Virus record (IMG/VR): IMGVR_UViG_3300021964_000041
Span: 1-64,000 of that record
From: a virus
Direction: 5' to 3' (one strand)
DNA: 64,000 nucleotides
In this document: positions 33,291-47,163 of the stretch, piece after piece
How the letters are laid out: every line of letters begins with the position of its first letter
How positions within the stretch are numbered: position 1 is the first letter of the stretch
The notes under the pieces: model-generated
What the model saw: the letters and a program-made list of their open reading frames with translations, nothing else
Database searches by the model: none
Told to the model about the DNA's origin: nothing
Program-made: the position numbers and the translations under genes

Positions 33291-35071
33291 TGTTTAAAAT
33301 TAAAACTTTAACAGTTAAAAACTTCATGAGTGTTGGAAACACAACACAAGCAGTTGATTTTTATAAAAACTTCTTGACCCTTGTGCTAGGTGAAAATATG
33401 GACCTAGGCGGTGATGATGCAGGGTCACGTAATGGTACAGGTAAGACTACTATTATTAATGCACTAAGTTATGCACTGTACGGTGAAGCACTTACAAAAA
33501 TTCGTAAAGAAAATCTAATTAACAAAACCAACGGCAAAGACATGTTGGTTACTGTTGAATTTGAAAAAGAAGGACGTTCATATCGTATTGAGCGTGGTAG
33601 AAGAAAAAACGTATTGAAATTTTATATCAACGATGTTGATTCGACTGCTGATGATATAGATGAATCACAAGGCGATTCACGTAAAACGCAGGAAGAAATA
33701 GAACGACTTTTGAACATGAGTCATGGTATGTTCAAACACTTGGTGGCACTTAATACCTATACAGAGCCTTTCCTATCTCTCAGTAATAACGCACAACGCG
33801 AAATTATTGAACAGTTGTTAGGTATCACCATTCTGTCTGAAAAAGCGGAGAACCTCAAGGAGCAACAGAAACAGGTCCGTGACAATATTACTGAAGAAGA
33901 TGCTCGCATTAGAGGAGTCGAAAGTGCAAACAAGGCTGTACAGGAATCCATTAATGCCCTTGAAATTAAAAGCAAGGCTTGGGACGCTTCACAGGCAGAA
34001 GAAATTTCACGACTGAGCAAAGCAATTATGCAACTGATTCAAGTCGATATTGATGCTGAAATTGATGCATTTACAAAGTTAAGTGATTGGGAAACTAAAA
34101 ATAACGAACTGTCAAACTTGCAAAAAGAAAAAGCAAGTTTAGAAGCATCACTACAACGTGCAGAAAGACAGCACAAAAAATATGAACAAGAATTAAAAGA
34201 CATCAAAAGCAAAAAATGTTTTACTTGCGGTCAAGAATTACATGACGAATCACATGCGGATTTGTTAAAAGAAAAAGAAAATGATCATAAAGAAAGCGAA
34301 ACATACATACAAGGCGTTGCACTGCAACTTGAAGAATGTTTAGGAAAAATAGATGCTATTGGTGATCTAGATAGCAAACCGCAAACATTTTATGAAACTG
34401 CGGAAGAAGCATACAATCATAAAAACAATCTTGCAACACTAGAAGATAGAAAAAAAGAAAAAGAAGAAGAAACTAATCCTTACACAGAACAAATGAATGA
34501 ATTGCAAGATACAGCAATTAAAGAGATTTCGTGGGATTATATGAACGATCTGCAGAACATGAAAGCACACATGGACTTTTTATATAAACTGCTTACAAGC
34601 AAAGATTCATTTATTCGTAAACGTATTATTGATCAAAACCTTGCTGTATTAAATAAGCGTCTAGCGTACTATTTAGAAAAGACAGGATTGCCACATCAAG
34701 TACGATTCCAGAACGATTTAACGGTAGAAATTACAGAACTAGGACGCGACTTAGACTTTGATAACCTCAGTAGAGGAGAACGAAATAGACTCATCTTAAG
34801 CATGAGTTGGTCGTTCCGTGATGTTTGGGAAAGTCTATATCAAAGCATTAATTTGCTGTTTATTGATGAACTTATTGATAGTGGTATGGATGCCGCTGGT
34901 GTAGAAAGTTCTATAGGAATATTGAAAAAAATGGCTCGTGAACGTAACAAAAACATCTATCTTATTTCACACAAAGATGAACTAAGTTCAAGGGTCAACA
35001 ACATATTAAAAGTAGTCAAAGAAAACGGCTTTACAAGTTATGCTACTGATACTGAGGTAGTAGATGTCTAA
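33290..35071 (+). CDS. gp46: Recombination ATPase subunit, Rad50/SbcC-like
   Basis: Walker A NGTGKTT, coiled coil with CFTC zinc hook, signature LSRGE, Walker B LLFIDE, ISHK. Confidence 0.93.
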   Translation: MFKIKTLTVKNFMSVGNTTQAVDFYKNFLTLVLGENMDLGGDDAGSRNGTGKTTIINALSYALYGEALTKIRKENLINKTNGKDMLVTVEFEKEGRSYRIERGRRKNVLKFYINDVDSTADDIDESQGDSRKTQEEIERLLNMSHGMFKHLVALNTYTEPFLSLSNNAQREIIEQLLGITILSEKAENLKEQQKQVRDNITEEDARIRGVESANKAVQESINALEIKSKAWDASQAEEISRLSKAIMQLIQVDIDAEIDAFTKLSDWETKNNELSNLQKEKASLEASLQRAERQHKKYEQELKDIKSKKCFTCGQELHDESHADLLKEKENDHKESETYIQGVALQLEECLGKIDAIGDLDSKPQTFYETAEEAYNHKNNLATLEDRKKEKEEETNPYTEQMNELQDTAIKEISWDYMNDLQNMKAHMDFLYKLLTSKDSFIRKRIIDQNLAVLNKRLAYYLEKTGLPHQVRFQNDLTVEITELGRDLDFDNLSRGERNRLILSMSWSFRDVWESLYQSINLLFIDELIDSGMDAAGVESSIGILKKMARERNKNIYLISHKDELSSRVNNILKVVKENGFTSYATDTEVVDV

Positions 35072-35294
35072 AGGCCCAACAACACATGAACTATTAATCC
35101 AAGCAATTATGGATTACTATAACATGAATGAACGTTGGGAAGCAAAAGGCTTTGATGAAAACGGTCGTAAAGTACGTTCTATACTAAGCGATATTAGAAG
35201 GCTATGCACACAAAGGCGATACGAAGTACAGGATAGGCGCAAGGATCTTAAGGCAAAAAAGAAGCAAAATCAGAATCAAGACACTGAAAATTAG
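35064..35294 (+). CDS. Small basic helical protein, possibly Hc1 (histone H1-like) family
   Basis: 76 aa. NERWEAKG...GRKVRSILSDIRRLCTQRRYEVQ resembles the KG.KAAG.RARK.L pattern; K/R-rich C-terminus. Confidence 0.5.
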   Translation: MSKGPTTHELLIQAIMDYYNMNERWEAKGFDENGRKVRSILSDIRRLCTQRRYEVQDRRKDLKAKKKQNQNQDTEN

Positions 35295-35301
35295 GCATCG
35301 G

Positions 35302-35307
35302 TAAGTA
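35302..35307 (+). promoter_or_regulatory. Variant late promoter TAAGTA-N5-ATG
   Basis: catcggTAAGTA-tcact-ATG(35313). Same N5 spacing as the TAAATA sites, same CATCGG prefix as the site at 39655-39666, no SD. Confidence 0.55.
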
Positions 35308-35312
35308 TCACT

Positions 35313-35744
35313 ATGGAGTGGACTTATCAGGGCAAAAAAGTACAAGAACTTCCCGCAGATTGCGAAGGATTTGTATACCTGATTACTAACACTACCAACA
35401 ATCGCAAGTACGTAGGCAAAAAACTCGCAAAATTCAAAACCACTAAGCCACCTCTCAAAGGCAAGAAAAACAAACGACGAGGCACAAAGGAATCAGATTG
35501 GAGAGACTATTGGGGATCTTCAGATCATCTAAATGCTGATGTTAAAAAATTAGGGCCAGAAAACTTCACAAGAGAAATTTTATACTATTGCAACAGCAGA
35601 GGCATAATGAGTTACCTTGAGGCTAGAGAACAATTTGAACGCCGTGTGTTAGAGACGGATGAGTATTACAATGGAATTATTAATGTTAGAGTTGGCAGTT
35701 CAAAAATTCTCAAAGAAGCACTAGAAAATCTAAAGGCAATATAA
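35313..35744 (+). CDS. Stand-alone GIY-YIG (Seg-like) endonuclease domain protein
   Basis: GFVYLITNTTNNRKYVGKK (GIY..YIG), YWGSS, FTREIL...YLEAREQF (catalytic-type Glu), YYNG (conserved Asn). 143 aa with no C-terminal DNA-binding domain. Confidence 0.85.
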   Translation: MEWTYQGKKVQELPADCEGFVYLITNTTNNRKYVGKKLAKFKTTKPPLKGKKNKRRGTKESDWRDYWGSSDHLNADVKKLGPENFTREILYYCNSRGIMSYLEAREQFERRVLETDEYYNGIINVRVGSSKILKEALENLKAI

Positions 35745-36182
35745 CAGCACATAAGGTTGGCGGGCCAGTTTGCAAATACCGCTGAGTAAAAGGTCCCCTG
35801 AGAAGGACACTCGTACACATTGATCGACCCCCCATGGGAGGAAGCCAACAAACAAATTGGGCTCACTGGTTAATGTAGATTGAATGCTGTCAGTCGAAAA
35901 CACATGTGTTTGAAAAAACTCCACGCAACGGAACGAGGCGGGAGGTAGCGTAGAAGACCGCGAAGCGGTTTGCGGTAGCAAAGCGATTTGTAAAGCAGTT
36001 TTTTACGTGATGTCGACGTAGGTAGGGGAAAGGTCAGAGCCCCACAAACAGGTGTATAAACAAAATACCTACTTCCAAGTCTTGGCTGTGACGAACTCAC
36101 ATGATGTTCAAGATTAGATGGAACCATAAACAGGTTCCGTCTGACTGAAACAATCTACATGATGCTAAATTGCTTCGCAATT
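35745..36182 (+). ncRNA. Candidate large structured non-coding RNA (~430 nt; further hairpins to 36250)
   Basis: Longest ORF-free gap in the window; ~46% GC by hand count, visibly above the AT-rich flanks. More than 10 helices, including the long-range ATGTAGATTG(35873-82)/CAATCTACAT(36151-60). G-U pairs favour the + strand. Confidence 0.75.
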
Positions 36183-36206
36183 ATCTTTCATATATAAAGG
36201 AATAAA

Positions 36207-36250
36207 TGTGTTCGAGCGATAGCGATAACACAGATGAACGTAGTTCATCT
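36207..36250. terminator. Tandem hairpins between convergent units (possible terminator or processing site)
   Basis: TGTGTT(36207-12)/AACACA(36227-32); AGATGAAC-GTA-GTTCATCT(36232-50). No clear U-tract. Confidence 0.4.
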
Positions 36251-36483: not shown

Positions 36484-37335
36484 TTATACGAAAAAATTTA
36501 CGTTATTCAAAAATACTGGAACACTTATAGTAGTTGGTGCTCCTTGATCCACTAAAGGTTGTGGCACTGTGACTTTTTGTACAGGAATATCAAACTTGCT
36601 TCGATTGCTTATTAAAAAGTCTCTAATAGCATTAAACAGTTCGCGATCTGAATCTGCTAGGAACTGCGTGATATTTGTAGGATTTGTTTCTTCACCTTCA
36701 GGTGTTGTTATTTTAACTATTTGTTTTGCTACAACATCAATGTTATTCATGCTGGCTTTATCGAGTATTTCCTGCATTACTTGTTTTCTTTTATCTTGAG
36801 GTAGTGTTTTATCGCTTAGTATATTGATAAAACGCTGTGTTTCAAACGTTTCGATATCAAAAAAGTTTTGATGCTTTAGTTTAAGTGGTAATAGATGAAA
36901 AGTAAGTTCATCATATGTAAATGTATCCTGCCATACTTGCGATTTTATACCGTCTAGCACTTCTGGAAGGCTTATTTCTACTTTTAGTTCTTCGTCCTCT
37001 ACTTTTGGAACTTTAACATCCATTTCCAGTTTTTCGCCGGTGGTTGCAATTCTAATAGCAATTAGTATTGCGTCCATATCAATGCTTGGAATATCCCATG
37101 GATCATCAATTAAAGGCACACAACTTTTAATAACTTCCGCTACTGCGTCTCCATTCATCAGTGCGTCAGGAGTTCTAAAGATCAATTCATCCTTAGCGGT
37201 CATGCTTAAAATAGGAATTTCACCCGTGCCTGAGCGTTCACAAGGATTATTCTTGTAAAATTTACCACCGCTAGGCAAAGTAAGGTAGATTTTTGGTGTT
37301 CTACTGTACTTGCTTAATATATTGTTTTGGTCCAT
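36484..37335 (-). CDS. gp26: Baseplate hub assembly chaperone, gp26-like
   Basis: 283 aa. PKIYLTLPSGG...MTAKDEL...IKSCVP...DMDAILIAIRIATTGE; ends NFFV. Confidence 0.75.
   Translation of the reverse strand: MDQNNILSKYSRTPKIYLTLPSGGKFYKNNPCERSGTGEIPILSMTAKDELIFRTPDALMNGDAVAEVIKSCVPLIDDPWDIPSIDMDAILIAIRIATTGEKLEMDVKVPKVEDEELKVEISLPEVLDGIKSQVWQDTFTYDELTFHLLPLKLKHQNFFDIETFETQRFINILSDKTLPQDKRKQVMQEILDKASMNNIDVVAKQIVKITTPEGEETNPTNITQFLADSDRELFNAIRDFLISNRSKFDIPVQKVTVPQPLVDQGAPTTISVPVFLNNVNFFV
36490..36499 (-). other. Putative programmed -1 ribosomal frameshift site (A AAT TTT TTC)
   Basis: Two overlapping X XXY YYZ heptamers in the correct phase, one sense codon before the stop; the -1 frame leads into ORF 36451-36257. 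Confidence 0.7.
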
Positions 37336-37378: not shown

Positions 37379-37386
37379 TATTTATA
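37379..37386 (-). promoter_or_regulatory. T4-consensus late promoter TATAAATA for the gp26-like gene
   Basis: + strand tatttata at 37379-86. Confidence 0.7.
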
Positions 37387-46610: not shown

Positions 46611-46716
46611 ATACATTGTCAGATATGTTCCATTCGAAGTAATGGACTTATGCAGTACTAAACCCACTGCGTACCGGCTAGAACCCGGATCGGACTTCTA
46701 AAAAAGGAGAAAACAA
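46608..46716 (+). promoter_or_regulatory. Late promoter TAAATA plus ~100-nt structured 5' leader
   Basis: TAAATA 46608-13; stems 46629-34/46641-46, 46649-56/46666-73, 46674-77/46685-88, 46679-83/46696-700; SD AAGGAG. Confidence 0.6.
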
Positions 46717-47163
46717 ATGGGTAGACCACTTAATAAAAGATACTTCGGCGAACCTACTGCGGGTGGAAATGAAATCAAAGTTGATTTTCACAACGGTACA
46801 AGTGTAGTTGAAGGACACATTGTAAGACAAAAAGGTAGCAAGAAGTTTGTAGTATCAGAAATTGGTGCTTCAGACACCGAATATACTTGCACATTAACAA
46901 CTGGTAAACTAATGTCAGCACTAGCGGCTGGTGAAATGGGTATCACGTTTAAAATGGACGATGCAGAAACTTACCAAGTTTCTAAAATTTCAGGTCGTAA
47001 AGCAACACTAGTTGCTCCAGATGCTACAGGTACTAACGCATATGACGGAAAGTCAGTGCCATGGAACTTTAACACATCTGTTGTAGACGGTGCGGCACAA
47101 GTTGAAGAGGCTGGTGACGACGATGTTGCTGGCGTTGATGACGACGATTTCGTTAACGCATAA
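46717..47163 (+). CDS. Virion structural protein (possible head decoration protein)
   Basis: 148 aa, MGRPLNKRYFG...IVRQKGSKKF; strong SD, own promoter and terminator, close to MCP. Confidence 0.5.
   Translation: MGRPLNKRYFGEPTAGGNEIKVDFHNGTSVVEGHIVRQKGSKKFVVSEIGASDTEYTCTLTTGKLMSALAAGEMGITFKMDDAETYQVSKISGRKATLVAPDATGTNAYDGKSVPWNFNTSVVDGAAQVEEAGDDDVAGVDDDDFVNA

Follow-up and report, generated by a model that had tools for sequence, protein, structure and literature searches.

Immediately behind the stop codon of a small nuclease gene in an uncultured T4-like myovirus lies a block of DNA, from ~35745 to ~36256, which encodes a large structured, non-coding RNA of about 450-510 nucleotides on the + strand (positions are those of the window, by which we mean the whole 64,000 nucleotides analysed, taken from an IMG/VR virus record of 79 kb). 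The same RNA is found behind nuclease genes of three unrelated families, which argues that it is probably a conserved RNA gene attracting mobile nuclease genes rather than a guide. The fuller proposal, that the flank of this RNA gene is a preferred home of mobile homing-type nuclease genes, has in our estimate an even chance of being right. Few structured RNAs are both large and strongly conserved, and earlier ones have proved to be ribozymes, ribonucleoprotein cores or regulators. The present one occurs in hundreds of uncultured T4-like phages of marine and freshwater habitats; apart from a 141-nt piece found in its cousins it has not been catalogued, and its tie to small nuclease genes, which belong to three folds, is unusual. 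Should this tie reflect homing, it would provide a clear natural example of an RNA gene spread by selfish nucleases; should it be functional, it would define a new class of RNA-nuclease partnership.

On the + strand a 283-aa ORF with no Pfam match is followed by gp47 (Metallophos), gp46 (AAA_23/SMC_N), a 76-aa ORF and the 143-aa nuclease ORF, and on the - strand a baseplate-type gene and a 64-aa ORF run towards the RNA region (Table 1). The stop codon of gp46 is overlapped by the 76-aa ORF (35064-35294, +) that separates gp46 from the nuclease gene; though poorly conserved (28-48%), this ORF is retained in many relatives, and where the nuclease cassette has been inverted it has stayed beside gp46. 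The first-pass annotation of this DNA, made from the letters alone, had endowed the nuclease gene with a promoter of its own and had described gene and RNA as one late transcription unit. The promoter-like TAAGTA-N5-ATG is indeed present at 35302-35315, but the TAAGTA-N-ATG pattern has four matches in the window against 9.7 expected and hence lacks enrichment, and TAAGTA was rejected as a promoter. A consensus search of the 64-kb window recovered no T4-type late promoter upstream of the GIY-YIG gene; the sole copy of this consensus, TATAAATA, lies on the - strand at 37379-37386, ~45 nt ahead of the start of the 283-aa baseplate-type gene. Thus, neither an own promoter nor a late unit finds support. 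Given this lack of promoter evidence, and the overlap of the GIY-YIG ATG with the gp46 stop codon in several relatives, the nuclease gene seems to close the gp47-gp46 operon rather than to form a separate late unit.

The 143-aa protein is a stand-alone GIY-YIG catalytic domain of the I-TevI/Seg type. Its residues 3-123 match Pfam SegE_GIY-YIG (PF19835) with E 3.7e-35, and it matches phrog_447 with E 2e-38 (the label 'NAD synthetase' attached to PHROG 447 is a misnomer). A model made with AlphaFold from 22 homologues (pLDDT 84) retrieved the I-TevI catalytic domain (1LN0/1MK0) as its best fold matches in Foldseek (prob 0.97-0.99, TM 0.58-0.60 by target, E 0.05-0.16). The GIY/YIG tyrosines Y22 and Y33, along with E88 and N120, are invariant across the 22 homologues, and we infer that these four positions are equivalent to residues of I-TevI. 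The catalytic-type residues of the first reading are therefore borne out, as are the K/R-rich insertion (residues 41-61), which is conserved and takes the form of a hairpin, and the lack of a C-terminal DNA-recognition domain: in both profile and model, the 20 residues following the catalytic domain offer only two low-confidence helices. Site-specific Seg/I-TevI enzymes require a DNA-binding domain. Copies adjacent to nrdB in the phages Melnitz and S-RSM4 had suggested an identity with T4 endonuclease II (DenA), which was rejected, as a sequence search of the PDB gave no match and the fold search placed I-TevI first, with EndoII absent among the matches. The GIY-YIG gene is nearly universal, is fixed in cyanomyophages and is under strong purifying selection (78-94% identity). 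In comparison with phage L007, a patch of ~15% nucleotide divergence (35370-35700) lies inside the gene, centred on the K/R-rich insertion and flanked by DNA that is 97-99% identical, which suggests a local gene-conversion tract or diversifying selection.

The structured element begins at the nuclease stop codon, as had been noticed from the letters. The + strand of 35745-36200 folds better than its shuffled versions (z = -3.3, as against -1.6 for the - strand), and a homologous element is present directly 3' of the stop codon in most of the 80 protein relatives that were fetched from viral contigs. RNAalifold derived 106 consensus pairs from a 14-sequence alignment, 21 of them with compensatory (two-sided) changes, and the consensus includes many G-U pairs, which are compatible with the + strand alone. 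A scan found no + strand terminator-like site between gene and element, in agreement with the initial reading, but the 3' end given there (36182) proved too early. The window and L007 are 98-99% identical in gp47, gp46 and the 76-aa ORF; their identity stays high through the RNA and then collapses immediately past 36256, and hence the conserved block takes in both terminal hairpins and extends as far as the stop codon with which the converging 64-aa ORF ends. The output of a naive exact-repeat finder contained too much noise for use, and so did an attempt to align 164 RNAs globally with MAFFT. The RNA is phage-specific: its core pattern had two matches in 185,579 prokaryote genomes, both on phage contigs binned into one MAG. 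None of the cultured phages in the collection, searched for four RNA types, carries it.

Table 1. Features of the nuclease-RNA region, with positions in the window
Feature	Position	Strand	Evidence or remarks
Stand-alone GIY-YIG nuclease gene, 143 aa (I-TevI/Seg-type catalytic domain, phrog_447)	35313..35744	+	Profiles, fold, residues
5' domain 'type A': outer helix around two hairpins and a branched stem	35745..35905	+	Compensatory pairs, RNAalifold columns 10-158
Stem-loop with invariant GGAACGA loop, start of conserved 3' domain	35919..35945	+	Helix covaries CG/UA/GC/AU, 87 unique sequences
Optional hairpin cluster, GCGAAGC-type mini-hairpins	35950..36003	+	Missing in L040, L009, L024 and L025; shortened in L014 and L018
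Helix H1 (GTAGGT with ACCTAC) around hairpin GGGG...CCCC	36018..36072	+	GUAG/CUAC, GAAG/CUUC and GAG/CUC changes across RNA types
Twin box 1, CTCACATGATG	36096..36106	+	Variable core equals that of box 2 in every RNA
Hairpin H2 (GGAACC / GGTTCC, extended), between the twin boxes	36111..36146	+	Pair counting
Twin box 2, TCTACATGATG	36154..36164	+	58 nt after box 1
Small hairpin, AATTGC-TTCG-type	36168..36182	+	Covaries TTGC/GCAA, TTAC/GTAA, GTGC/GCAC
Two terminal hairpins: GAGCGATAGCGA motif, then AGATGAAC/GTTCATCT	36207..36250	+	Covariation, RNAalifold columns 500-544
283-aa baseplate-type gene	36484..37335	-	

Comparison of the loci indicates two parts of the RNA, a 5' domain that can be exchanged and a conserved 3' domain bearing two short boxes (Table 1). 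The 5' domain varies by phage group (types A, B, C and others) and the 3' domain is common to all; the type A domain of the window is replaced at other loci by type B or C domains and in two phages, L072 and L079, by the Rfam motif Polynucleobacter-1 (RF01718). Within the 3' domain a putative pseudoknot would join the loop GGTCAGA (36032-36038) to TCTTGGCT (36080-36087); compensating variants for it, judged by eye, were seen in L060 and L363. The hairpin H2 was evaluated by counting pairs in 33 very diverse RNAs: 86% of the cells are paired and 50 cells have changed on both sides, a level of pairing that none of 500 shuffles equalled, and slid controls gave 33-51%. The small hairpin at the end of Table 1's box region is a possible 3' end or weak terminator.

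The two boxes form direct repeats with a constant spacing of 50-60 nt; the 7-8-nt word common to both varies from phage to phage and is the same within each RNA (e.g. ACATGATG, ACATGAAG, AGATAATG, ATCGAGAT, TCTTGAT, TGTCAAG and GGTGAAG). As many as 23 distinct words occur among 33 RNAs; the shared word has a mean length of 7.5 nt within an RNA versus 4.7 nt between RNAs, and in 1000 permutations the observed match was never reached. No current model explains this concerted evolution of the boxes. An internal complement to them has no consistent position among 80 RNAs, and none lies nearby in the window or in the start region of the nuclease gene. Several candidate roles were rejected: the boxes do not resemble the start region of the nuclease gene, which they might have mimicked; C/D-box or k-turn motifs, mini-hairpins and palindromes each suit some variants only (CAUCAUGAUGA and CUCAU-CGAG-AUGAG fit such ideas, and ACAUGAAG, AGAUAAUG and UGUCAAG do not); and a small conserved reading frame from the boxes fails because the type B frames, inspected by eye, end early.

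To survey the neighbours of the RNA, loci were collected by a pattern of the RNA only, without reference to any gene. A GIY-YIG gene lies directly upstream at ~108 of ~119 such loci from viral and metagenome contigs. The 68 informative viral loci include 64 with GIY-YIG upstream, two with it downstream and one with a PD-(D/E)XK gene, with no HNH gene and no locus devoid of a nuclease; one further viral locus is truncated by the contig end. Among the 51 informative metagenomic loci, GIY-YIG is upstream in 44 and downstream in none, PD-(D/E)XK genes occur in four, an HNH gene is directly upstream in one and one gene away in another, and a single locus lacks a nuclease. A nuclease gene thus adjoins the RNA almost everywhere, usually upstream and co-oriented, and GIY-YIG has been replaced at the same place by nucleases of other families (PF24608 and PF01844 for the PD-(D/E)XK and HNH neighbours, respectively). 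The PD-(D/E)XK neighbour is a 171-aa phage endonuclease (PHROG label 'RusA-like') which takes the place of GIY-YIG between gp46/orf78 and the RNA (L157, 5250-5765; also L451, L452, L471 and L524). The HNH endonuclease, of 162 aa, precedes the RNA in L516 (1944-2432, directly adjacent) and L465 (428-916, one gene away), where the surrounding genes are different and include radical-SAM/SPASM genes.

These neighbours bear directly on the suggestion of the first-pass annotation that the RNA guides or scaffolds the GIY-YIG enzyme, with a guide-like segment at 35921-35996. An arrangement in which RNA base pairing supplies target specificity would be reminiscent of HEARO/OMEGA systems (IscB, TnpB), where too a compact nuclease gene adjoins a large structured RNA, and the want of a DNA-binding domain in the present nuclease is in keeping with it. 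The system nevertheless differs from HEARO/OMEGA in its nuclease fold, in having neither a guide segment nor transposon ends, and in its swappable neighbours. The supposed guide is in fact the conserved loop together with the self-paired optional hairpin cluster, and the latter is missing in some relatives. In alignments of more than 100 RNAs there is no variable unpaired guide, nor any hypervariable single-stranded segment, at either end; what varies is the whole 5' domain, the optional hairpin and the two internal boxes, which have just 3-5 variable bases and for which no matching target was found. As the same RNA also lies behind PD-(D/E)XK and HNH nucleases, and as GIY-YIG homologues often occur without it, guiding or scaffolding is unsupported: with three unrelated folds beside it, one RNA is implausible as the cofactor or guide of all. 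We conclude that the RNA probably serves the GIY-YIG enzyme as neither guide nor cofactor, and regard an OMEGA/HEARO-type RNA-guided nuclease as very improbable.

Approaching the linkage from the side of the gene, we sorted 360 GIY-YIG loci (a count that includes some duplicate contigs) by context. Where the gene follows gp46, the RNA is present at 249 loci and absent from 10, several of which have sub-threshold matches. At 12 loci an inverted cassette, with the order baseplate gene, orf64, GIY-YIG, RNA, faces gp46, and here the pair has been inverted as a unit; at another 27 the gene occupies the inverted position alone, with the RNA absent. None of 13 loci with the gene after nrdB has the RNA; the isolate Melnitz (79% identity) and the cyanophages belong here, and in them there is no room for it. 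At seven loci of an unrelated phage the order is RNA followed by GIY-YIG. In this higher-GC phage (L368, 1968-2923; also L366, L369-L371, L086 and L127) the full RNA comes first, succeeded by the two terminal hairpins, which are thus kept even upstream of the gene, a ribosome-binding site and a GIY-YIG gene of 47-52% identity.

Gene and RNA therefore form a co-oriented adjacent pair, as first described, which is conserved over large divergence in three arrangements (after gp46, as an inverted cassette, and with the RNA preceding the gene). The first-pass annotation had named a frequent lack of the RNA among close homologues as refuting its idea, and this is borne out in part: homologues of 72-81% identity, namely the nrdB-adjacent copies, that of Melnitz included, and the 27 inverted loci with the gene alone, do often lack it. 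The nuclease gene itself appears to be mobile, yet it is nearly universal and strongly conserved. On a tree of 213 unique GIY-YIG proteins the RNA state changes at least 14 times, against 48 for shuffled labels, and the genomic context at least 10 times, with at least four contexts occupied; moreover, the window and Melnitz are 79% identical in GIY-YIG and 26% in gp46, and the divergent patch inside the gene, seen against L007 with its 98-99% identical flanks, points the same way. The gene thus appears to behave like a freestanding, mobile homing-type nuclease gene.

The two-sided placement also bears on whether the RNA is merely a cis-acting untranslated region, one that would act on the mRNA of the nuclease or gp46 operon, through its stability, termination or translation, and would have no role of its own. 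The absence of a terminator between gene and RNA and the occurrence of hairpins where two gene blocks converge are consistent with such a region. However, a strongly conserved, multi-domain and probably pseudoknotted structure of ~450 nt far exceeds such needs, and the RNA is found both 3' and 5' of the gene and also behind unrelated genes, which makes this explanation quite improbable.

A different possibility is a functional partnership, in which the RNA would bind the GIY-YIG protein as scaffold, regulator or inhibitor, or would be processed by it, being a lineage-acquired add-on to a nuclease that works alone elsewhere. Such a scheme would account for the asymmetry of the linkage, with the RNA almost never lacking an adjacent nuclease gene and the gene often lacking the RNA, and for the persistence of the co-oriented, adjacent pair through inversion and transfer to an unrelated phage; the conserved K/R-rich hairpin of a protein devoid of a DNA-binding domain is in line with it as well. 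Set against these points are the PD-(D/E)XK and HNH nucleases that precede the same RNA, the close GIY-YIG homologues that do without it, and the free variation of the boxes beside a highly conserved GIY-YIG, owing to which the boxes cannot track the specificity of the enzyme. On balance we consider the partnership unlikely.

The window's RNA element has no match in Rfam, even at E 10. A tmRNA was rejected, with neither ARAGORN nor Rfam detecting one in the window (the ssrA gene of Melnitz is located elsewhere in its genome), and RNase P, group I and II introns, GOLLD, ROOL and HEARO were likewise rejected for want of an Rfam match. GOLLD and ROOL resemble it in being large, multi-domain, phage-borne RNAs, but they show no Rfam sequence or structure match to it and are not tied to a nuclease gene. 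Another parallel is offered by the group I introns of T4-like phages, in which a large structured RNA is likewise associated with a co-oriented I-TevI-type or HNH gene and the nuclease families are interchangeable. Unlike these introns, the present RNA has no exons, interrupted gene or Rfam intron match, and in a check for flanking exons no + strand reading frame resumed after it.

The RNA might be an intron-like mobile element, possibly catalytic, that resides between genes and carries interchangeable homing-endonuclease genes, with the twin boxes as its processing or recombination sites. The three nuclease families that lie directly upstream and co-oriented or, in one phage group, downstream, are typical of intron-borne or freestanding homing enzymes; the cassette moves as a unit, there is a sharp identity break at the 3' end of the RNA, and the boxes are regularly spaced direct repeats. 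Contrary to this, neither a group I nor a group II intron was matched in Rfam at E 10, there is no interrupted host gene, no empty sites are at hand for comparison, and the RNA diverges with the phage backbone, unlike a recent invader. We therefore judge an intron-like element to be distinctly unlikely.

GIY-YIG, HNH and PD-(D/E)XK are families from which both freestanding and intron-borne homing endonucleases are drawn. The reading that we prefer, a conserved RNA gene flanked by mobile homing-type nuclease genes, can be outlined as follows. The RNA gene would be situated at the tail of a gp47-gp46-orf76-GIY operon and would probably be co-transcribed with it; the likeliest reason for the linkage is that, being highly conserved, it serves as a landing site for nuclease genes or as their co-converted neighbour; and nuclease-driven gene conversion would then keep the RNA and the nuclease gene together. 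A precedent exists in T4, where the linkage of SegB to tRNA genes reportedly arises through nuclease-driven co-inheritance and not through an RNA-protein complex. There too a Seg-type GIY-YIG gene adjoins conserved RNA genes in a T4-like phage; but SegB has a DNA-binding region, which the window's protein lacks, and its neighbours are tRNAs, whereas here there is one large RNA. The initial suggestion of a link to homing-type recombination is plausible.

Several observations speak against homing as the whole explanation. The GIY-YIG protein is without the DNA-binding domain needed by site-specific Seg/I-TevI enzymes, and its strong purifying selection and fixation in cyanomyophages are unlike a decaying selfish gene. 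The gene is strictly co-oriented with the RNA, almost always lies directly upstream, and has been inverted and transferred with it as a unit; a pure target-site relation needs no co-oriented unit, and co-orientation thus also fits functional coupling. Finally, the twin boxes are left unaccounted for. Because of the missing DNA-binding domain, the purifying selection and the co-oriented unit, both the partnership and the intron-like alternatives retain some probability. Taken as one broader class, a new free-living mobile RNA element (intron-like, with sites for processing, recombination or recognition in the co-varying boxes) or an RNA partner of minimal nucleases without DNA-binding domains appears to us rather unlikely.

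A part of the RNA has been encountered before in the guise of Polynucleobacter-1. This motif has no gathering-score match in the window, whose 5' domain is unmatched by the model even at E 10, but it scores 107.8 bits in L072 and 59.4 bits in L079. In these two phages its 141 nt occupy the position of the window's 5' domain, right after the GIY-YIG stop codon, and are followed by the same 3' domain with its twin boxes; the published motif thus represents the 5' third of the RNA only. According to the supplementary account of the motif by Weinberg et al. 2010 (PMC2864571), GOS11034 genes related to PSSM2_218 of P-SSM2 precede most of its examples, and none was found in a purified phage. We identified PSSM2_218 as a member of the GIY-YIG family (42% identity, E 2e-23). 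Taken together with that account, this means that the adjacency was already noted in 2010 for the 141-nt piece; what the supplement's account of the motif does not describe is the 3' domain with the twin boxes, the nature of the adjacent gene as a nuclease, and the other nucleases that can stand in its place. Elsewhere in the window, a freshwater-2 RNA motif (RF02980, 73 bits; 46629-46719, +) precedes a gene with an AAGGAG ribosome-binding site, which hints at a freshwater or estuarine origin of the phage.
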